Assembly: GCA_038257035.1 (NCBI GenBank)
Contig: JBBSJT010000032.1
Location: 1 to 21,023 of the forward strand
Length of the DNA stretch: 21,023 bases
Direction: 5' to 3'
Source: Chlamydiia bacterium
GTDB lineage: Bacteria > Chlamydiota > Chlamydiia > Chlamydiales > Parachlamydiaceae
The position numbers and the translations under genes were made by a program. Below are positions 1,949 to 15,965 of this stretch, one piece after another. The notes below the pieces were generated by a model, which ran no database searches, was not told the origin of the DNA, and saw only the letters and a program-made list of their open reading frames with translations. Numbering within the stretch: position 1 is the first letter of the stretch; every line of letters begins with the position of its first letter.

Positions 1949-2359
1949 GGGGGTGTCAAGGTTTCGACTGGGGAACGAACCATTAGTTGCATGCAGAGGA
2001 TTTCGGTTGGCCTCTTTAATCATCCGATAAAAAAACAAATGCTAACAAAAATAGCAAACTTGTTGCCGTTAACTTTGCTCCTGCAGCAATGGCTAACGCA
2101 GCATAAGTGACTTTGGGACCTAACGGTCCCGGTTGCGTGGCAGCCTGTAAGTGGACCTAGGCTTTTCAGGATCTGCCATAATCGACTAGGTATGGTTTGG
2201 TACCCGAGCTTCTAGGGAATCAAGTCAAGATTAAATGAAGACCGTTAACTTCAGTGACCGTGTTCTGCATAGGGGTTAATTAAACAAAATAGAACACTAA
2301 GCATGTAGTGGCTAGTATGTAGTTTGCTTAGGACGAGAGTTCGATTCTCTCCACCTCCA
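1949..2359 (+). ncRNA. ssrA: tmRNA (one-piece); tag peptide ANKNSKLVAVNFAPAAMANAA encoded at 2041-2106
   Basis: 5' end GGGGGTGTCAAGGTTTCGAC; T-arm GAGAGTTCGATTCTCTC; acceptor strand CACCTCC plus discriminator A, giving the G3-U alanine determinant. The tag ORF resumes at GCT and ends in AA-stop. CCA is not encoded. Confidence 0.96.
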
Positions 2360-2513
2360 AATTTTACTGTTATATAACGCAAAAGGCCCATATAGGGTCC
2401 AGATTTTAGTCATCGTGACGAAGGTAAACCTCATGGTTTATCAAGGAGCGATGATCTAAAAGATGGGCCTTATATGGGCCTTTTGCGTCTATAAAAGTAA
2501 GATTTGGAGGTGG
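2351..2513 (+). repeat. Long imperfect palindromic repeat, copy A (163 bp), overlapping the last 9 nt of tmRNA
   Basis: Left arm CCACCTCCAAATTTTACTGTTATATAACGCAAAAGGCCCATATAGGGTCCAGATTTTAGTCATCG pairs with right arm CGATGATCTAAAAGATGGGCCTTATATGGGCCTTTTGCGTCTATAAAAGTAAGATTTGGAGGTGG. Apical hairpin TAAACC-TCAT-GGTTTA. Confidence 0.93.
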
Positions 2514-2514
2514 G

Positions 2515-2686
2515 ACCTCCAAACGTTAGTTTTATATAACGCAAAAGGCTTAGTATTTTGCTCGAGATTTGTCAGCACGACGAAGATAAACCTTATGGTT
2601 TGTCGAGGAGAGATGATCTAAAAGATGGGTAGAATACGGGTTTTTTGCGTCTATAAAAGTAACTTTTGGAGGTGGGAACCTCCAAA
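2515..2686 (+). repeat. Long imperfect palindromic repeat, copy B, plus the first ~9 nt of a third copy
   Basis: ACCTCCAAA recurs at 2353, 2515 and 2678 (periods 162 and 163). The arms and apical hairpin match copy A, with a diverged mid-stem. Confidence 0.9.
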
Positions 2687-2688
2687 AA

Positions 2689-2729
2689 AAACAAAAAGCT
2701 TCGTTTTAGGGCTGAAGCTTTTTTTGTTT
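2689..2729 (+). terminator. Intrinsic terminator-like hairpin closing the ssrA-plus-repeat unit
   Basis: AAAAAGCTTC (2693-2702) pairs with GAAGCTTTTT (2714-2723) and is followed by a T-rich tail. The A-tract on the other side makes it possibly bidirectional. Confidence 0.7.
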
Positions 2730-2949
2730 AGTGACTTATACACCATAAATCTTAAAAGCTCTAGTTTGGAAAGCTAATTTAAGAACTAGACTGGATGAAA
2801 CTACAGTAAAACTCTCTTTGTTTTTGAGATTTTTATGCTATACTATCGTGATGGAATCAATTTGAAAATGAATTTATAAAATGGATTAGAGAGTTGCATG
2901 GACTCTAGGACCTGGAACGTCAATCCTGTAACGTCAATAAGGATAATAA

Positions 2950-3705
2950 ATGAAATTAGCAGGAAAAAAAGTAATTGTGACTGGAGCTAATCGAAGCATT
3001 GGTAAGGCAATTGCTTTATTGTTTGCTAAAGAAGGAGCCGAATTAGTCATTAGCTATCGATCTGATAAGAAGGGAGCTGAAGAAGTCGTAGATTGCATTC
3101 AAGAAGTAGGTGGAAAGGCCAGGGCATTTTACGCAGACTTTTCCACCTGTGATGGTGTAAAACAATTTTACAGCGAATGCATTGGTATTTTAGGACATGT
3201 AGACATCTTGATCAACAATGCAGGAGGTTATAACACGCTAGGCTTTTTTGAATTAACACCTCATGATTTTGAACAATTGTTACAAGTGACCTTAATGACG
3301 CCATTTTTCTTATCACAGCTTGTTGCAAAGGGCATGGTAGAAAAGCATACCAAGGGAAACATTATTAATATTTCCTCTATTTCTGGTACTCGCCCATCGA
3401 TGAATCGAGTCGCACATGCCTCTGGTAAAGCTGCATTGAATATGCTAACCCAAACTATGGCCTTGGAACTAGCACAGCACGGGATCAGAGTAAATGCTAT
3501 TGCGCCAGGGATTACTCCTTATGAAGAAAGCTCCGAATTCGATTCTGCTATTAAAGATATTCCTCTCGGACGTGCAGGACTTCCAAACGATCAGGCATCT
3601 ACAGCACTTTTTCTTGCGACTGATGATTCATCTTGGTTGACTGGACAAATACTCACTGTAGATGGCGGACATTCGATAGCTCTTTCTTCAGAGAAAGAAA
3701 CTTAA
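2950..3705 (+). CDS. Short-chain dehydrogenase/reductase (FabG/glucose-1-dehydrogenase-like fold)
   Basis: TGANRSIG glycine-rich motif, LINNAG, NISS, GIRVNAIAPG and TGQILTVDGG. AAGGA RBS upstream. The catalytic YxxxK motif reads HASGK. Confidence 0.92.
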   Translation: MKLAGKKVIVTGANRSIGKAIALLFAKEGAELVISYRSDKKGAEEVVDCIQEVGGKARAFYADFSTCDGVKQFYSECIGILGHVDILINNAGGYNTLGFFELTPHDFEQLLQVTLMTPFFLSQLVAKGMVEKHTKGNIINISSISGTRPSMNRVAHASGKAALNMLTQTMALELAQHGIRVNAIAPGITPYEESSEFDSAIKDIPLGRAGLPNDQASTALFLATDDSSWLTGQILTVDGGHSIALSSEKET

Positions 3706-3919
3706 GAATTCATGGTTTCAATAAAGTTTTCTTCAATACAAACCATAATGCTTTTCCTATTATGCGTAAAATTTGCGTAAATCTTGCGCATTAATTTGAA
3801 AATACAGCGAACAATTTTAAACGGCGGAAAAGAAAGGCCCTAGTTTTTTATCATCTTAAGAAGGGTTAATCTAAGCATTTGTCGGTAAGGGTTGATCTCA
3901 AATCTATTGCCATCATAAT

Positions 3920-5641
3920 TTAAGTCCATTCATGCTTGCTTAATAATGTAAGAATCTTTTCTTTTTCTTCATCATTCAATAAAAGGGTATGAATGCCATG
4001 AACAGCTAATGCACCTGGCAAATGACCTTGCTTATTTCTAATATTTCTGTCTGCACCTAGTTTAAGTAAAAGTTCTATAAGTTCAATATTACCGGCGCCT
4101 ACAGCTGTATGTAATGCAGTGTTGCCCTCTTCATCTTGAATATTAAGATTAGCTCCATATTTTATTAATGCCAATGCAGCATTTTTACTTTTTTCTAAAC
4201 CTTCCGCCACATAATGCAAGGGTGTTTTTCCATCAATATCTTGCATATTTACGGATGCTCCGCCCTCAAGGAGCGCTATAATGATTTCATTCATTTGGTT
4301 GTCATTTTCTGTAGCAACTTTCTCTGCTGCATAGTGTAATGCTGTTTTGCTGGAAAGATCAAGGATATCAATGATGCAATTTGCTTCAATGAGCTTCTTT
4401 ACAATCATTAAAGAAGATTTTTTTCCTCTTTCAATTGCAGTATGCAGAGCTGTCTGCCCTTTTTTATCCTGAATATTTACTCCAATTTTTTCCGTTACAA
4501 GTAGATCAATTCTTTGTAAATCTTGGGTATTATTTGCATACTGAACCGCAGAGTGTAATAAAGTTTTTCCATCAAAATTGCGAAAATTTATATTTTCTGC
4601 TTTTTTCAAGAGTAATTTTAATGACTCCATTGATATCTTTTGCGACTCAAATGCCTTATGTAGAATCGAATTTTCCTTTTTTTCTTCAATAATATTGGGG
4701 TTAGCTCCGACTTCAACCAAACCTTCTATAGCCTCATTAGCTCCTCGAAGACAAGCCCAATAAAGAATTGGATGGTGCCAATAATTGGAATTGGGATCAG
4801 CTCCATACTCAACTAAGAGTCTGATTGATTCTTTTGAATTTGTGATAACCGAAATCATAAGAAGAAGAGGACTGATGTTATCAAGTTTTGGCAATATATT
4901 TTTAACAAAAGCTATTTGTTCGATACTTAAAGCTACCTTAAGCATTTCTTCAATTCTTTTCTGCTCTTTTATTTTACTCTCATCATCAAAAACAGGCTCT
5001 AGTTGATGACCTTGAAGCATGGCCTCAAGAAGTTCAATTTTATATTTTTTTACCTCTAAATGAAGGGCTGCTTGCTGATCAACTCTTGAATAAGCATTAA
5101 GCGAGATGGCATTGGAAGCAATCATACTCACTTTTTCAAATAAAGATTTATTATCCCAAGAGAGTTCATATTGCCCTAATTCATCAAGTTTTGCTTCGAT
5201 TTTACTTTGTATGAAATTTATTTTTTTTATAGTTTTATCTTTCCAGACTGCGGTTGTGTAATGTGAATGATTTATTGAAACCATTAAGGAATTTTTACTA
5301 GTTATTCTAAATTTATCTTCATCTGTGAAATCTTTGGATAAATTTTGCTTAACTAACTCCTTGATCGAATCTACTGAAAGAAATTTGGAATCAATGTTTA
5401 AATTTTCTTCCTCGGTATTTATTACTGTCGCATACAATTTTTTTAGTGTAATCGGTGTATTCAAATCAAGTTGACTTAATCTAATTTTAGCATCCTGAAT
5501 ACTGGATGAATCTGCCATATAACCTTCTACAGATAACTTAAAATTTTTTCCATCTATAATAAAATTGCCCCCCTCTTTTGTTTCCAAAAGCCGAACTTCA
5601 TACCAACATTGATCACCTTTTAAAGTAATATCAAAATTCAT
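3920..5641 (-). CDS. Ankyrin-repeat protein with an uncharacterised N-terminal half; putative host-directed effector
   Basis: Multiple ankyrin motifs in the C-terminal half (GKTLLHSA, GQTALHTA, SKTALHYA, GKTPLHYV, GNTALHTA; GA(D/N)xN turns). GAGG RBS. The effector role is inference. Confidence 0.9.
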   Translation of the reverse strand: MNFDITLKGDQCWYEVRLLETKEGGNFIIDGKNFKLSVEGYMADSSSIQDAKIRLSQLDLNTPITLKKLYATVINTEEENLNIDSKFLSVDSIKELVKQNLSKDFTDEDKFRITSKNSLMVSINHSHYTTAVWKDKTIKKINFIQSKIEAKLDELGQYELSWDNKSLFEKVSMIASNAISLNAYSRVDQQAALHLEVKKYKIELLEAMLQGHQLEPVFDDESKIKEQKRIEEMLKVALSIEQIAFVKNILPKLDNISPLLLMISVITNSKESIRLLVEYGADPNSNYWHHPILYWACLRGANEAIEGLVEVGANPNIIEEKKENSILHKAFESQKISMESLKLLLKKAENINFRNFDGKTLLHSAVQYANNTQDLQRIDLLVTEKIGVNIQDKKGQTALHTAIERGKKSSLMIVKKLIEANCIIDILDLSSKTALHYAAEKVATENDNQMNEIIIALLEGGASVNMQDIDGKTPLHYVAEGLEKSKNAALALIKYGANLNIQDEEGNTALHTAVGAGNIELIELLLKLGADRNIRNKQGHLPGALAVHGIHTLLLNDEEKEKILTLLSKHEWT

Positions 5642-5764
5642 ATAAACCTCACAATTAAATAGACTATATTTGTATTATACAACTAATTACCGTAATATAG
5701 AAACTATTAATTACAAAACCAAACCTAAATTACAAATCCCAAGTTACTTCATAGGAAGCTATCG

Positions 5765-5828
5765 CCAAACCGGGCATTACCAACACACGGTTTTAGTCTA
5801 AACCGTGCATTGACAATACACGGTTTGG
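5765..5828. repeat. Doublet of ~31-bp palindromes (REP-like)
   Basis: CCAAACCGGGCATTACCAACACACGGTTTTAG (5765-5796) and CTAAACCGTGCATTGACAATACACGGTTTGG (5798-5828). Each is self-complementary and they resemble each other. Confidence 0.7.
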
Positions 5829-6100
5829 TATGGCAGAGAAATAAAGAGATTTTCCCGGTGAAGTGTTTTCTTTGAATATTTGGGCATCACTACTGATAAT
5901 TTTCAGACTCAGTAAGGTTTATAATTTTTTTCGGCTTCGCCGGTTTATATGGATGAATCTATTATGCTTGCATACACATGTCTTTTTCTCATTTAACATC
6001 TAAACTTTAACCGGAAGGATGCCTCTCTCCTCGCTAAAGTTTTTGATTTTTAAAAAGAACAAAGAACAAAATCCAAAGGCCCTTTCCAAGGGTCAAAGGT

Positions 6101-7051
6101 TCAAGTGCAGATGGACTTCCTAGCGCAAGAAGCGCCAAGCGAGCTAAAATTGAACATGTAGTCGAAGTCGTCGGAGTCGTAGACTACGAGACCGAGGGCA
6201 GAAAAGCTGCCAACTGCTATTGGATAACCCCCGCTATTTTGCTCCTGAACGTGCGTATACGTCCTCTGGTGACCATTTGATCCGTCAGAGTAAACAAAGT
6301 CACCTGTTTGCAAATTGCGCAGCAAAATGCTTACTACTGCATCTATCAGGTTGGGGATTTCAAATCCGGCTTCCTTAACGAGTTTTTCTTGAATCGAAAA
6401 ATTCTTATTTCTCGTTCCATTTACAAGATCGGCACAACCCAACACATCTTTAGATAACATAACCCAATGGGATTTAAAGGGCTTTACCGTTTTATCATTG
6501 ATATCATAATCACTTAGCAGATATCGATAATTGCTTCTGAATGCATCTTTACCGTTTTTATAGTCACTGACAAATCGGTCAAAACTGCTTAATGTAAGCT
6601 CCTCTCCATTGATCGTTTCCGGAATGAACGTAAGCATCCACTTAGAAGAGTCAAAGTCTTGGATCATTTTTAATGGAAGATAGGGTTCAGCTCCGGGATT
6701 TCCACCATAAGATATCCACTCTGCCTTACCAAAACAACCTTCCGGCCGGTAACTTTTAGCATAATCATTAGTCAACTTATTAAGCGATTGACTTAGCACA
6801 GATAAGGCTACTAAATCCGGTTTGCTGTGCTTTAAAACTTCATTCCATACATCTTGAGGAAAAAACGGTATCTCATGAATTGGTTTATTGTCTGTATTGT
6901 CGGGTTTAACCGAATTAACGGGATAATCCATCGAGTGAAGGGCGTTGTCGCCATCCACAATTGTACCTCCGCTTTGTGGCCATAGCGAGTTTATAGCATT
7001 ATTAAAATCTACAACACTATTATAAATACAATCATAAACATTCATATTCAC
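6101..7051 (-). CDS. Hypothetical protein with an F-box-like segment (aa ~61-93) and a C-terminus resembling a DGR target variable region
   Basis: FPQDVWNEVLKHSKPDLVALSVLSQSLNKL fits the F-box pattern. It is followed by FGKAEWISYGGNPGAEPYLP, and the C-terminus is VGSFSALGLVVYDSDDFDYMFNFSSLGASCARKS. Domain calls are by eye. Confidence 0.75.
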   Translation of the reverse strand: MNMNVYDCIYNSVVDFNNAINSLWPQSGGTIVDGDNALHSMDYPVNSVKPDNTDNKPIHEIPFFPQDVWNEVLKHSKPDLVALSVLSQSLNKLTNDYAKSYRPEGCFGKAEWISYGGNPGAEPYLPLKMIQDFDSSKWMLTFIPETINGEELTLSSFDRFVSDYKNGKDAFRSNYRYLLSDYDINDKTVKPFKSHWVMLSKDVLGCADLVNGTRNKNFSIQEKLVKEAGFEIPNLIDAVVSILLRNLQTGDFVYSDGSNGHQRTYTHVQEQNSGGYPIAVGSFSALGLVVYDSDDFDYMFNFSSLGASCARKSICT

Positions 7052-7075
7052 CTAGAATTTATTAATTTAGTTCAG

Positions 7076-7105
7076 AGTATACTTTAATAAAAAAATAAAA
7101 GTCAA
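7076..7105 (-). promoter_or_regulatory. Putative sigma70-type promoter of the 6101-7051 gene
   Basis: Minus strand TTGACT (7105-7100), 18-nt A/T-rich spacer, TATACT (7081-7076). Confidence 0.55.
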
Positions 7106-7151
7106 CAACAGTTTATAACAACAGTTTAGAAAACTGTAGATAACAGTTTAG
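7104..7151. repeat. Short 12-13-bp repeats with an AACAGTTTA core
   Basis: AACAACAGTTTAT, AACAACAGTTTAG, an inverted AAACTGT, then AACAGTTTAG, directly upstream of the -35 element. Confidence 0.6.
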
Positions 7152-7199
7152 ACTTTTTGTGCCGCCAAAATAGAAATTTCCGCTTTTAGAGCAAAATAA

Positions 7200-7340
7200 A
7201 GTGATGCAAGTGCTTATGCAGCGCGCGATAGATTGGTCGTAAACTGTACAATCACTATCCCTGAATTTGAAGACTTCTCAGCAAGCAGTGATTATTCCGA
7301 CTGGAATGATTTGGTGCGGGAACAGGGCACCAGGCAGTCC
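7200..7340 (+). pseudogene. Relic of the C-terminal end of a TOPRIM domain (mobile-element primase/TraC-TraA type)
   Basis: Frame after the stop at 7197 reads SDASAYAARDRLVVNCTITIPEFEDFSASSDYSDWNDLVREQG, matching the P-x-F...DWNDL...G ending of plasmid/ICE TOPRIM domains. No start codon with an RBS; locally more GC-rich. Confidence 0.5.
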
Positions 7341-7376
7341 GAACCAAAAGAAGGCAGGAATAAAAAATGTAACGAT

Positions 7377-7531
7377 CAGATTTTTTTCATCGTTAAGAAG
7401 GTAAACCTAATGGTTTATTGAGGAGCGATGATCTAAAAGATGGACCTTATATGGGCCTTTTGCGTCTATAAAAGTAAGATTTGGAGGTGGGACCTCCAAG
7501 CATTAATTTTATATAACGCGCAAGACCGTAT
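7377..7531 (+). repeat. Dispersed copy of the tmRNA-linked palindromic repeat (5'-truncated A-type unit plus the left arm of the next unit)
   Basis: GGAGCGATGATCTAAAAGATGGACCTTATATGGGCCTTTTGCGTCTATAAAAGTAAGATTTGGAGGTGGGACCTCCAA has one mismatch to 2445-2522. Confidence 0.93.
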
Positions 7532-7625
7532 CCCCAAAAATCGTAAAAGCCTATCACTTTGGATAAGCTTTTTGATTTGATAGGGGTTATTCTCTTTCAA
7601 AGCTTACTTTAGAAATGGATGCTTT

Positions 7626-8966
7626 TTAAACCAAGCTAAATTCTTCCTTGAAAATATACTCAAGGGGTACACCTGCTTCTAAAAGCTGCTTTTGCAGCGC
7701 ATCCATCATCGGCTTAGGTCCGCACATTAAAAATACTTTATTTGAAAGATCTCCCCCCACCGCTTCCTTGATTATATCTGCAGTAATATAGCCCTCCTTT
7801 TCTGCGCAATGTAAAATACTATGAAAATGATCGTTACCTGCATCAAGCTGCTTAATTTCATTCCGATAATAATCTTCACCTTCCTTGTTATAACTGTAAA
7901 AAAGGTAAACCTCGTTTCTTTCTTTTGATCGGAAAAGAGTGTCATTTATTATGCTTAAAAAAGGAGTAATTCCGATCCCGCCTCCAATTAGCACAGCCTC
8001 TTTGTCAGCATGTTCAAAATAACGATTGCTAAATTTTCCGTAAGGGCCCCAAATATATGCATGATCACCCTTTTGCAATTGATTTATTTTTTTTGTCCAA
8101 TCCCCCAATTGCTTGATTGAAATCCTTAAGTATTCCGATCGAGGTTCTGAAGAGATGCTAAATGGATGGGGTTCTGAACTTAATTCGGGAGAATCAAAAT
8201 AAATATAAATAAACTGACCTGGTAGATGAATCAGGCTGCGATAGGGCAGGTGAGGCTGCAAATAAATTTCTGTAATATCACCTAATTGCTCAACATGGTG
8301 TACAACATAGTCATGAAGTGGACCAAACCAGCGATACAGCACTCGAATATATAAAAAACTAAAAAGTCCCATGCCCACCCAAAACCCAAACCAACCTAAA
8401 AGAAAAGGATAGGTCATGATCTCACCTTGTGCTGCAATCGCATGGAAGACCACCAATAGCAGTAGTAATCCGAAAAAGTTGTGCGTCTGTTTCCAGCGGT
8501 GATAGCGCATCGGGATCCAAAGCGAAAAAGCTACCAACAATATAAACATTAAAAGCGCTGCAATCCCGCTCATTCGTGCAATATAATAATGCAGCTCTTC
8601 TTTGGGCAGATAATCTATCCAAAAGAAACTAAAAAAATTAAACTTAGGATCTAAGGCTAAAAAGATCGGATGAAGAAAAATAAGAAAAAAAGCTGATTCA
8701 CCAACCCATCGATGCGCTTTGTAAACCTTGTCCAAACCTCCAAATAAATTCTCAATAAAATGAAACCTTGTTGCAAGCAAAAAAGCCCAGCACATGAGCA
8801 TCGTTGAAGTCAGGCTTCCTATCTTAGCCCAATATTTCAACTTATATTCATACCAAGTATCATAGTACCACATTGATCCGAAGTAAATTGCCAAAGTTGC
8901 AATCAGGCTAAGAAAAATGACAAAATAACCCCAATAATATTGTTTTTTAAAAATGGAAGCCATCAT
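7626..8966 (-). CDS. Ferric-reductase-like membrane flavocytochrome (bacterial NADPH oxidase, SpNox-like architecture)
   Basis: Transmembrane N-terminal part with two His pairs (YKAHRWVG...FLHP; WKQTHNFFG...VFH). FAD motif HPFSIS, GPYG, NAD(P)H motif GGGIGITPF, CGP and terminal EEF. AGGAG RBS. Confidence 0.9.
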   Translation of the reverse strand: MMASIFKKQYYWGYFVIFLSLIATLAIYFGSMWYYDTWYEYKLKYWAKIGSLTSTMLMCWAFLLATRFHFIENLFGGLDKVYKAHRWVGESAFFLIFLHPIFLALDPKFNFFSFFWIDYLPKEELHYYIARMSGIAALLMFILLVAFSLWIPMRYHRWKQTHNFFGLLLLLVVFHAIAAQGEIMTYPFLLGWFGFWVGMGLFSFLYIRVLYRWFGPLHDYVVHHVEQLGDITEIYLQPHLPYRSLIHLPGQFIYIYFDSPELSSEPHPFSISSEPRSEYLRISIKQLGDWTKKINQLQKGDHAYIWGPYGKFSNRYFEHADKEAVLIGGGIGITPFLSIINDTLFRSKERNEVYLFYSYNKEGEDYYRNEIKQLDAGNDHFHSILHCAEKEGYITADIIKEAVGGDLSNKVFLMCGPKPMMDALQKQLLEAGVPLEYIFKEEFSLV

Positions 8967-9231
8967 CTTTCTCCTAAAAAATTCGCAAGATTTAAAATAA
9001 CCGAACCATACTTGGCCTTAGCTTGAGCCTCTTATTGCTATTATAACTCTGGCATTTTTCGATTATTTATTCACCTTATTTATAGGTTCTACAGTCGCTT
9101 ATTTCACAAATCTCAAACGGTGTCTGCGAGGCAAAGAAATAAATCTCTGACCGAAATCTTCAAATATTAATTCTAAAGGTATTACAGGTGATAACATCTC
9201 TTGTAAAGGCCTGAAAAGAATCGATCGTTGG

Positions 9232-9439
9232 AGTTTTTTTTATAAAATATAAAAGGCCCGTATACTGTCCAGATTTTTGTCATCACGACGAAGATAAACC
9301 TTATGTTTGTCGAGGAGAGATGATCTAAAAGATGGGTAGAATACGGGTTTTTTGCATCTATAAAAGTAATTTTTTTTTTTGGGGGGGGGTGGGAACCTCC
9401 AAGCATTAGTTTTATGTAACGTAAAAAAGACCCGTATTT
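9232..9439 (+). repeat. Dispersed copy of the tmRNA-linked palindromic repeat (B-type unit plus the left arm of the next unit)
   Basis: CACGACGAAGATAAACCTTATG-TTTGTCGAGGAGAGATGATCTAAAAGATGGGTAGAATACGGGTTTTTTGCATCTATAAAAGTAA is nearly identical to 2576-2662. The junction is altered to T11-G9-TGGGAACCTCCAA. Confidence 0.92.
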
Positions 9440-9463
9440 GGCTGGTGATTTTCTCCTTAAATC

Positions 9464-12735: not shown

Positions 12736-12945
12736 AAGTTATAGCAAGTTATAATGGGTTATAACCAGTTATAACAGAAAATCGATATAACTAGCTATAA
12801 CTTTGTATAAGTTCGAGAAAATTGGATTTATCCGAGAGAAGAAATTCAACAAAAAGAATGAAAACGAAAAAGTTATATATTTATAATAGGTTATAACCAG
12901 TTATAACGAAAACTTGATATAACCCATTATAACTTGCTATAACTT
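12736..12945. repeat. Phased GTTATAAC-type repeat array bounded by perfect 28-bp inverted repeats
   Basis: AAGTTATAGCAAGTTATAATGGGTTATA (12736-12763) is the exact reverse complement of 12918-12945. TATAA-type cores recur every 10 bp. Confidence 0.9.
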
Positions 12946-12948
12946 GAG

Positions 12949-13419
12949 CTAAACGCGAAGTTTTTTTCTAAAAAAAGGAATATCCAAATGATTTATTTTT
13001 TTGGTTTCTCCGGTAAGTACATAGCCCATTTTTTCATAAAGATGCATGTTGCCTTTTTCTTCTTTAATGGTTGCAAGTTCAAAATATTCAATCTTTGGAA
13101 ATAATGTCTCAAGTAGTGTTAAAGCTTTTTGAGCAATTTTTTGATTTTGAAAATCAGGATCTATAAAAATGGGACCAATAAATAAAATATTTGGAGCACT
13201 CTTTTTTATGGCAATCCCCCCTACCAATAAACCATCTTTTAAAATCTTATAAAATCCTTTTTTAGGATTATTAATTCTATTTAATGTTTTTTCTAAGAGC
13301 TCAACTGCAGGATTGGTCTCAACATCGTTATATTTTGCAAGTAACGGTAAAAACGATTTAATTTGAAGAGCATGGAGTTCTGGCGCATCTACTGAAGTTG
13401 CCTTTATAAGTATGATCAT
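12949..13419 (-). CDS. GNAT family N-acetyltransferase
   Basis: Start revised to ATG 13419 (MIILIKAT...), which overlaps the mutM stop as TAATG. Acetyl-CoA motif IFIDPDFQNQKIAQ and NMHLYEKMGY. Confidence 0.85.
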   Translation of the reverse strand: MIILIKATSVDAPELHALQIKSFLPLLAKYNDVETNPAVELLEKTLNRINNPKKGFYKILKDGLLVGGIAIKKSAPNILFIGPIFIDPDFQNQKIAQKALTLLETLFPKIEYFELATIKEEKGNMHLYEKMGYVLTGETKKINHLDIPFFRKKLRV

Positions 13420-15658: not shown

Positions 15659-15680
15659 TTGAGCCTATAAATTGAGGAAC

Positions 15681-15853
15681 TGTTGCGATTCGATAAATAA
15701 CAACACTTAACCTAATTTTAATGTGGCGATTAAATAATTGCAACACATAAACCTGATTTAATGTTGTGATTCTGTAAATTACAACAGTAAAAACTGTTTT
15801 AATGTTGTGATTCGTCCAATCGCAACAAATAAACCTGTTTTAATGTTGCGATT
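15681..15853. repeat. Tandem array of 4 full plus 1 partial ~41-bp units, each with a TGTTGCGATT-N4/5-AATYRCAACA palindrome
   Basis: Units start at 15681, 15722, 15762, 15803 and 15844 (periods 41, 40, 41, 41). The linker is approximately NNTAAACCTG(A/T)TTTAA. Confidence 0.92.
15715..15743 (-). promoter_or_regulatory. Putative sigma70-type promoter of the fic gene embedded in the repeat array
   Basis: Minus strand TTGCAA (15743-15738), 17-nt spacer, TAAAAT (15720-15715). Confidence 0.55.
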
Positions 15854-15965
15854 AATCGACCCAATTGATCCAATTGTTTCTTTGGAGTAGAGCAGTATAT
15901 AAAAATATTGAAAAATTAAACCGTTAAGGCTATCACTGATTTTTTACTACTATTTTATTGGATGT

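Follow-up and report, generated by a model that had tools for sequence, protein, structure and literature searches.

What are the long hairpin repeats that begin inside the transfer-messenger RNA (tmRNA) gene ssrA of a chlamydia-like bacterium and return between the accessory genes behind it? tmRNA genes are a favourite landing site of integrative elements, and environmental chlamydiae exchange genes inside amoebae by poorly understood routes. We analysed contig JBBSJT010000032.1 of a Chlamydiia bacterium of the Parachlamydiaceae (assembly GCA_038257035.1, here genome G000; 2.37 Mb in 210 contigs, completeness 95.8%); the window is this entire 21,023-bp contig (C32). A first, sequence-only reading had taken the repeats for a possibly undescribed cassette-delimiting or non-autonomous mobile element that seeded or built an island at ssrA. 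We find that the repeat unit is a strand-specific folded module of about 160 nt that copies and mirrors the last bases of ssrA, and we tentatively favour the view that it is a non-autonomous, site-specific insertion module for the tmRNA gene 3′ end, with its enzyme supplied in trans. G-numbers denote the genomes of the order that we compared, and L-numbers denote extracted loci, including metagenome loci.

A module that copies and mirrors the end of ssrA

The gene end and the four repeat copies lie in the window as follows.

1949-2359, + strand: tmRNA gene ssrA (ARAGORN)
2351-2360, + strand: last 10 nt of ssrA, CCACCTCCAA, the 5′ foot of U1
2353-2512, + strand: unit U1, a complete hairpin module and the best-preserved copy (model R1, 158.5 bits; fold -101.2 kcal/mol)
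2503-2523, + strand: junction 1, consisting of mirror TTTGGAGGTGG, 1 nt and direct copy ACCTCCAAA; a small hairpin
2515-2674, + strand: unit U2, the tandem second unit (81% identity to U1; weaker fold, -65.8 kcal/mol)
2665-2685, + strand: junction 2 and, at 2678-2685, the final direct copy, ACCTCCAA; right border of the putative U1-U2 insertion
2686-2870, + strand: terminator module, an intrinsic-terminator hairpin with a T-run and then a conserved non-coding block (sequence; comparison with G001 and G008)
7377-7527, + strand: copy 3, a partial unit (repeats; model 81.7 bits)
9225-9451, + strand: copy 4, a U2-type unit (repeats; model 113.3 bits)

Rfam places the tmRNA (RF00023) at 1949-2360 with 155.9 bits, and a class I aminoacyl-tRNA synthetase gene lies upstream on the opposite strand (Pfam). 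Read in the sense of ssrA, a unit runs from T (ACCTCCAA, the last bases of ssrA) through a left arm, an apical core and a right arm that ends in T′ (TTGGAGGTGG), followed by 1-3 nt and a fresh T. T′ is the exact mirror of CCACCTCCAA and pairs with the gene end, and the hairpin between T and T′ is about 140 nt long and strand-specific. The apical core has the order CAGATTT, stem, GACGAAG, short stem-loop, AAGGAG, stem and AAAGATGG, and it contains a conserved tandem G-A mismatch (CAGAT versus AGATG) that is sensible in a folded single strand and not in duplex DNA. The small T′-x-T hairpins, junction 1 among them, score terminator-like on both strands, and the last T, past U2, runs into the intrinsic terminator and the conserved non-coding block at 2686-2870. 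We define the mirror-and-copy family by five features, namely a start in the gene's last bases, the apical core, a mirror followed by 1-3 nt and a copy, the orientation of ssrA, and a length of about 155-160 nt; U1 and U2 have all of them, and copies 3 and 4 have them in part.

Repeat searches recovered a 148-nt family at 2400-2547, 2562-2709 (70%) and 7377-7524 (91%), a 70-nt family in four copies at 2436, 2598, 7413 and 9305 (81-97%), and a 35-nt junction family in four copies at 2350, 2512, 7489 and 9392. Inverted arms join 2351-2374 to 2490-2513 (24 nt, 92%) and 2377-2409 to 2456-2488 (33 nt, 88%), and the junction GGAGGTGG-N(0-3)-ACCTCC occurs three times (2506, 2668 and 7483) with 0.00 expected. 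Copy 3 is the right two-thirds of a U1-type unit (7377-7489, 93% to U1): it has no left arm, its first bases are the core motif CAGATTTT at 7377, and behind its intact junction (7480-7500) stands a stub, 37 nt of another left arm (7491-7527). Copy 4, whose unit part ends at 9391 with 88% identity to U2, has had its left foot replaced and carries a left-arm stub of 57 nt (9394-9451) behind a degenerate junction (9369-9401). There a T12 G9 run (9369-9389) takes the place of the mirror part, which is either a homopolymer expansion or an assembly artefact.

The sequence-only reading had described this degenerate fourth junction, the tandem pair that starts inside ssrA with two decayed copies between accessory blocks, and a single intergenic orientation, all of which we could reproduce from the repeats, the fold and the junction counts. 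Every copy lies in the orientation of ssrA and outside long open reading frames (ORFs), and overlaps are limited to a frame of 62 amino acids (7233-7421) and one of 74 amino acids (9182-9406), neither with a Pfam match. BLASTN of the four units against G000 matched C32 only, bar one chance-level 24-nt match, and the covariation model likewise matched C32 only, which bears out a non-coding module tied to the ssrA end and leaves no trace in G000 of the alternative raised with it, a genome-wide family of repetitive extragenic palindromes (REPs) or miniature inverted-repeat transposable elements (MITEs). Among the 36 tRNA and tmRNA genes of G000, a mirrored end occurs downstream of ssrA only; the other match is the 5′ end of the next tRNA. 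No Rfam family reached its gathering threshold, the only matches being to microRNA-precursor families at 30.4 against 140 and 22.9 against 245.

Conserved pairing on one strand

The 381 nt at 2340-2720 fold with -184.2 kcal/mol, against -91.95 kcal/mol for shuffles (z = -16.8; 0 of 100 shuffles equal). When 10 units from 5 genomes are aligned, the core and the feet are conserved and the stems are very different, and RNAalifold finds compensatory change in 25 of the 44 pairs. Over 29 units, 93.7% of cells pair versus 74.1% in shuffles, 32 of 44 pairs are compensatory, none of 500 shuffles matches any measure and slid registers reach at most 55%, although the fit of the alignment to a structural model and the kinship among the genomes inflate these controls. 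In all 28 distinct units, the sense strand of ssrA is more stable than the other (mean -88.5 versus -67.5 kcal/mol), and G-U pairs over these units number 175 on the sense strand versus 40 on the other. The folded strand may be RNA or DNA. Among four runs compared with the window, two metatranscriptomes gave RNA contigs of relatives, which cover only tmRNA-like sequence to about 2360, and none lies on the units.

A strand-specific fold behind a stable RNA gene could also be a native 3′ trailer of the tmRNA precursor, that is, an old, vertically inherited RNA element for processing, termination or insulation that is co-transcribed with the tmRNA, has been lost many times and is duplicated only through displacement by integrating DNA. 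We consider this rather unlikely. It accounts for the strong covariation around a conserved core with its tandem G-A, for the better fold of the sense strand in 28 of 28 units and for the ssrA-proximal copy being the best preserved in the window; moreover, no terminator lies between ssrA and U1, so U1 must be co-transcribed with the tmRNA. However, the unit pairs with the acceptor 3′ strand and would sequester it, it is hard to see what the direct copy of T and the tandem arrays would do in an RNA, and short versions of the unit place a terminator before the mirror, which would then not be transcribed.

An insertion or deletion at the ssrA end

We located the tmRNA in 41 relatives, of which 38 (including G000) were above the family cut-off, and extracted the 37 other loci. 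The terminator block stands directly behind ssrA in 13 of these 37, including the congeneric G001, where it shares 69% identity with window 2695-2825. In G001, CCACCTCCAA is followed by the terminator hairpin; in the window, CCACCTCCAA is followed by U1, U2, ACCTCCAA and the orthologous terminator block. Since ssrA abuts the terminator block in G001, the surplus of the window is exactly U1 plus U2 and one extra ACCTCCAA. U1-U2 is therefore a clean insertion or deletion bounded by the 7-8-nt repeat ACCTCCA(A), and the unit behaves as an insertion, in line with the mobile element suggested earlier. The same comparison speaks against a native trailer: most relatives have no unit, and in 13 of 37 a plain terminator follows at once.

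Units of the same build lie behind ssrA in G002 (congeneric), G016, G018, G025 and G029, and hairpin-only tandems occur in G000, G002, G025, G029, G066, G085 and G087. In G066, seven units lie between ssrA and TTGGTTGGAT, the left end of a serine recombinase type element, with ACCTCCAA on both sides; the same left end abuts ssrA directly in G005, G012 and G037. A metagenome contig of a relative (DNA run X2) joins 2677 back to 2353, which points to another number or order of tandem units in that relative. Contigs of several relatives end 2-562 nt past ssrA (G007:C133, G018:C100, G030:C108, G002:C59, G039:C36 and G017:C1). The break lies inside a unit in G002, whose contig ends in its second unit, and in G018; repeats behind ssrA may break assemblies. 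Set against tmRNA identity over 136 genome pairs, unit identity yields a rho of 0.06 (685 of 2000 permutations as high), a comparison in which deep pairs are saturated, only congeneric pairs agree, and G137, G168 and G095 are left out for want of a full tmRNA in the stored stretch.

The family across the order

The covariation model matched 37 of 150 sampled genomes of the order at E <= 0.001 and 21 of 150 in a second sample at E <= 1e-6, with 0 of 26 in a family of ~1-Mb genomes. All matches of at least 83 bits lie at the ssrA locus, and units at this level overlap the tmRNA 3′ end in 16 genomes. In G095, G113, G070 and G051 the unit lies 3-4 kb downstream of ssrA in the same orientation, so it is not needed for the tmRNA there, a further point against a trailer; in G148, no tmRNA was found in the assembly. 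Copies within a genome are far more alike than copies of different genomes. Between the congeneric G095 and G168, orthologous units hardly differ, as a trailer would have it.

A metagenome search with the 23-nt ssrA end, covering 79 of 117 loci, gave ssrA-locus units in three: L377, where the unit abuts ssrA, and L306 and L370, where it is displaced. No enzyme gene stands beside the units at these three loci, and L338 has one weak match upstream of ssrA. A plain terminator hairpin occupies the place between T and T′ in G031 and L306. On viral contigs the junction pattern gave 51 loci with 0 model matches, and on genome contigs, among the matches listed, 0 of 80 titled loci were chlamydial (Actinomycetes, Firmicutes and others). 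In full-text literature outside subscription journals we found no description of the hairpin element and nothing on serine recombinase arrays at ssrA in Chlamydiae; the hairpin family is apparently undescribed.

Cargo blocks, serine recombinase scars and displaced units

Two blocks of accessory genes separate the copies.

2871-7376, both strands: cargo block A, three genes (ORFs, Pfam)
2950-3705, + strand: SDR gene, block A (Pfam)
3920-5641, - strand: ankyrin protein gene, block A (Pfam)
6101-7051, - strand: 316-amino-acid ORF with a sub-threshold F-box match, block A (Pfam)
7528-9239: cargo block B, with a ferric-reductase/Nox-like gene at 7626-8966 on the - strand (Pfam)

The names SDR, ankyrin and Nox-like given in the sequence-only reading are backed by Pfam, whereas its F-box-like gene stays below threshold (E 0.035; 14.5 bits versus 20.5) and its TOPRIM relic has neither a Pfam match nor a significant match to a relative's Toprim-like protein. 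Block A has no nucleotide match in two congeneric genomes. The Nox-like ferric reductase (7626-8966) has a full-length, 61%-identical ortholog in G061, a genome of another family (L119:7440-8777), where it lies 3.2-4.6 kb downstream of ssrA with the same relative orientation as in the window.

In relatives, such blocks are delimited by a scar. Behind ssrA of G005, after TTGGTTGGAT, lies the reverse-strand gene of a 508-amino-acid large serine recombinase (Resolvase, Recombinase, Zn ribbon), which is intact beside ssrA in two metagenome loci (L337 and L369) and broken in G012, G037 and G004. The last ~20 codons of this recombinase run antisense through the ssrA 3′ end (L016:3354-4880 in G005; L337; L369), so tblastn with the protein matches every ssrA, including window 2300-2359; against G000, the G005 enzyme matched this antisense overlap only. 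The element of G037 ends 2.77 kb on in a motif of about 30 nt (..CAAAAGTTCTGAAC..TCTCTCCACCTCCA) that mimics the T-arm and acceptor end of ssrA. There are 16 such mimic gene ends, in 12 of 48 ssrA-downstream regions of relatives, and behind each motif stands whatever formerly followed ssrA, be it a unit or the terminator block. The motif is the right-end scar of elements whose large serine recombinase gene neighbours ssrA.

The 11 kb behind ssrA in G168 illustrate the result: units occur at five places and are near-identical to one another, the genes between them include HTH, Fic, hydrolase, porin-like, peroxiredoxin and NUDIX genes, and most blocks end in the mimic motif, often with a unit next to it. 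Past cargo, a unit stands behind a displaced or mimic ssrA 3′ end in G168, G066, G070, G148, L306 and L370. Since units often just follow the scar as former ssrA flank, the hairpin is not established as a cassette recombination site or as the builder of an island, and the earlier suggestion that it built one is not supported. The claim that it delimits cassettes stands in part: units do lie at the borders of one- to few-gene cargo blocks in G168, G066 and G016, and both the G016 cargo and window block B are flanked by repeats of the unit right arm, the junction and the left-arm stub, but the blocks of relatives are delimited by the ~30-nt scar instead. Blocks in the window hold 1-3 genes in both orientations, and those of relatives are alike.

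The scar motif (AAAGTTCTGA...) is absent from the window, where two 1-mismatch matches are at chance level. We considered a serine recombinase island at ssrA as an identity for the window itself and rejected it: the window repeats only ACCTCCA(A) of the ssrA end, its distal border has no direct repeat or mimic of at least 15 nt, and G000 has 0 matches to PF00239 and PF07508.

The order of parts differs between genomes. Counted from ssrA, the window has its units first and the terminator block after them. G095, G113, G070 and G051 show the reverse: next to ssrA come the terminator block and 3-4 kb of cargo, including Toprim-like, AbiE, GNAT, NUDIX and TetR-monooxygenase genes, and the unit lies farther out, behind a displaced gene end. 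In G066 an eighth unit, with scores identical to those of the first, follows the scar of a serine recombinase type element with a RhuM gene. Units and other elements thus alternate at ssrA, which argues that units enter the gene end independently of larger elements and are then displaced by them. The terminator module (2686-2870) also reappears behind mimic gene ends in G011 and G040. Together with its conserved non-coding block of ~150 nt, it leads the inserted block in G095, G113, G070 and G051, and the module may be a portable element end, or a small RNA or promoter region.

The alternation can be read in another way, to which we give a modest chance. Integrative elements at ssrA, whether with a serine recombinase or of another type, must restore the tmRNA 3′ end and protect themselves against strong transcription from ssrA, and the unit could be the arm with which they face the gene. 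On this view, units would come in and increase in number solely together with such elements, and a unit that is now a bare hairpin would have lost its cargo. Whatever element lands at ssrA, a hairpin stands right behind the gene end that it rebuilds, be it TTGGTTGGAT...CCAACCA, the terminator module, TTTAGGGG...CCCCTAAA or the unit, and the junction hairpins score terminator-like. The repeats of right arm, junction and left-arm stub around the G016 cargo and window block B also fit, as does the presence of the core immediately within each end of a DDE insertion sequence, where it follows the sense of inward transcripts (below). Yet the intact recombinase elements (G005, L337 and L369) end in TTGGTTGGAT and not in a unit, hairpin-only tandems are common (the seven genomes listed above), and the likeness of units within a genome (identical scores of U1 and U1′ in G066; the copies of G168) would be unexpected if they came with foreign cargo.

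Related hairpins at other sites

Lower-scoring matches of the model are dispersed foldback elements of ~160 nt that share the core (G095, G085, G132, G162 and G084). They have other, conserved termini (ACCCCTGATTGCGACC...) in A/T-rich flanks, with several further terminus types. In G110, core hairpins lie inside both ends of an insertion sequence of ~1145 bp with a DDE_Tnp_1_3 / DDE_Tnp_1 transposase, in the sense of transcripts that read inwards. This insertion sequence (L072:1501-2645) occurs at five loci, four with full transposase frames and one partial, and has 20-nt terminal repeats and its DDE_Tnp_1_3 transposase in two frames. The core further occurs behind tRNA-Tyr in G071 (L114:1456-1720) and G067 (L117, reverse strand), where the gene is followed by a long hairpin, a mirrored tRNA end and a copy. 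For a native tmRNA trailer, a core that recurs in dispersed MITEs and, antisense, behind tRNA-Tyr is hard to explain.

These relatives raise the question of whether the ssrA unit is itself an ordinary MITE, a deletion derivative of an IS5/IS982-like insertion sequence that was moved by a DDE transposase and landed at ssrA by chance. The apical core common to the dispersed elements and to the hairpins inside the ends of the G110 insertion sequence favours this origin, and other genomes of the order, unlike G000, do hold dispersed MITEs with this core. We nevertheless judge it improbable for the ssrA units, which share only ACC with the termini of those elements, whose outer stems are unconserved between genomes bar the part copied from ssrA, and whose duplication is a fixed sequence of 7-8 nt and not a short A/T-rich target. 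Units are never dispersed in G000, which has no homolog of the G110 transposase (tblastn, E <= 0.01). The fixed termini, dispersal and transposase of an IS5/IS982-like MITE belong to the dispersed elements of other genomes and are lacking in the ssrA units.

Comparison with known systems

Bacterial MITEs and palindromic elements include the Correia elements of Neisseria and the Rickettsia palindromic elements. The module resembles them as a non-coding foldback of ~100-160 nt in a host-restricted lineage, whose dispersed kin and parent-like insertion sequence are found elsewhere in the order; unlike them, it has its G000 copies at one locus, ends copied from the target gene and no matching transposase.

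The attC sites of integrons and the attP of CTX phage, a substrate of XerCD, form imperfect palindromes (60-150 nt) in which the feet are conserved and the stems vary; one folded strand gives the recombinase a duplex site, and integration proceeds through one strand exchange. With these the module shares a cassette that holds no enzyme gene and arrays of units in one orientation beside a fixed entry site. The resemblance does not extend to the defining parts. attC boxes (R″/R′) read RYYYAAC / GTTRRRY around variable centres; the units have no RYYYAAC...GTTRRRY, their feet are ACCTCCAA ... TTGGAGGT(GG) in 10 of 10 aligned units and their apical core is conserved. The entry site is a gene end and not attI or dif, its neighbour is the aminoacyl-tRNA synthetase gene with no intI beside it, cargo never lies between mirror and copy, and the blocks of 1-3 genes in both orientations are no array of promoterless single ORFs in one orientation.

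IS200/IS605, PATEs and REP/RAYT elements use strand-specific hairpins, with 3′ insertion at a short target paired with an adjacent guide. In these systems the right end of the element repeats the cleavage sequence, and the hairpins measure ~20 nt with guides of 4-5 nt. REPs occur in many dispersed copies, unlike the ~160-nt units found on C32 only, and dispersed 20-40-nt palindromes flanking a Y1 gene, the hallmark of REPs or REPINs with RAYT, are lacking here. Unlike in these systems, the unit core is turned round behind tRNA-Tyr. On the membership features examined, the likeness to integron attC and to REPIN/RAYT drawn in the sequence-only reading fails.

The closest published layout is that of Dehalococcoides, for which the main text of McMurdie et al. 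(2011, PMC3146451) describes tandem ssrA-specific genomic islands with the serine integrase DsiB, its large serine recombinase gene lying on the reverse strand beside ssrA, and integrase-less blocks read as cis-mobilisable elements. The repeat described there is a 20-bp copy of the gene end, and the word 'hairpin' is absent from that main text. Set against this account, the relatives have a similar layout (the 508-amino-acid recombinase by ssrA in G005; mimic ends in 12 of 48 regions). The window differs from it in having no scar and a genome without serine recombinase, and what is repeated here is a folded module of 160 nt that mirrors the gene end and has just 7-8 nt of direct repeat.

In kind, we place the unit among non-autonomous site-specific elements and att-site structures at tRNA and tmRNA genes.

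A model for entry at the gene end

We propose that the module enters at T by one site-specific exchange, carried out by an enzyme supplied in trans. The succession T, hairpin, T′, x and T would represent a small circle that was closed at x, opened within T and joined into the gene end, and the mirror arm would make the recombining T double-stranded once one strand folds. Tandem units could arise from repeated entry or from unequal exchange. Later integration at the ssrA end, in relatives chiefly of large serine recombinase elements and of blocks led by the terminator module, would push the resident unit with the old gene end downstream, so that cargo blocks come to surround the old units, which then decay. 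In this window, U1-U2 would be the latest event, and the copies at 7377 and 9225 would be older and eroded. A circle fits with a repeat that is short and fixed, a linker that varies, units in tandem arrays and biased to one strand, a mirror adapted to each target and a unit free of any enzyme gene, which is why we favour the insertion module.

Several observations weigh against it. The difference between G000 and G001 could be a deletion in G001. The units of G000 and G002 share 77% identity by BLAST (75% in the model alignment) against 75% for flanking ileS-ssrA, and a unit divergence so close to that of its flanks is explained equally well by mobility and by vertical descent of a functional trailer. 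We saw neither a free circle nor a read across an empty site. Copies 3 and 4 have no recognisable displaced gene end in front of them (local alignments for a remnant of a unit or gene end fell below shuffled controls), so their history would have to be read from relatives only. The core is antisense to the gene in the tRNA-Tyr cases, and its orientation relative to the mirror-copy end is therefore not fixed. The inflation of the covariation controls belongs here as well.

We also identified no enzyme for the unit. Pfam finds no cognate enzyme among the window genes, as had been said at the outset. PF00589 matches in G000 lie on C7, C21, C51, C16 and C163 and none on C32, the four full-length tyrosine recombinase genes all being on other contigs. 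The seven Y1_Tnp loci of G000 are all different and have no unit motifs nearby, two isolated 7-mers being the sole unit-motif matches in their 700-nt flanks, and serine recombinases (PF00239, PF07508) are lacking altogether. In the arrays of relatives, Pfam on the longer ORFs that we picked (24+14+17+28+8) showed no recurrent recombinase or nuclease.

A more radical form of the model, which we think unlikely, sees in the unit an enzyme-less mobile element that exists as a dumbbell-shaped, single-stranded mini-circle with the mirror arm as a built-in guide. A host recombinase, for example a resident tyrosine recombinase, would insert it by a single strand exchange behind tmRNA and tRNA genes, in the manner of integron attC and CTX phage, with the end of an RNA gene as its target. 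Such an element could be retargeted via its mirror, and its arrays would serve as landing pads and as portable homology for cargo exchange among chlamydiae that share an amoeba host.

Beyond integrase islands, the ssrA hotspot has a second layer here, a small and conserved module that folds on one strand, carries both a copy and a mirror of the gene end, multiplies into tandem arrays and accompanies the borders of cargo. If the module is in itself a complete insertion substrate, it would form a compact system with its target written in a 10-nt mirror, whose target recognition could be tested by mutation and might be of use in site-directed insertion. If it is a trailer, tmRNA biogenesis would be tied to a new RNA with a conserved structure. 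The covariation model can serve as a marker for reading the insertion history at ssrA in chlamydia-like genomes.

Other repeats in the window

Two further repeat arrays lie outside the region discussed above. At 12736-12955, between an AAA-ATPase gene and a GNAT gene, two inverted blocks of 10-bp-periodic TTATAAC repeats resemble iterons or operators. Upstream of an HlyD-ABC transporter operon, at 15666-15855, there are 3-4 copies of the palindrome TGTTGCGATT ... AATCGCAACA, probably an operator array.

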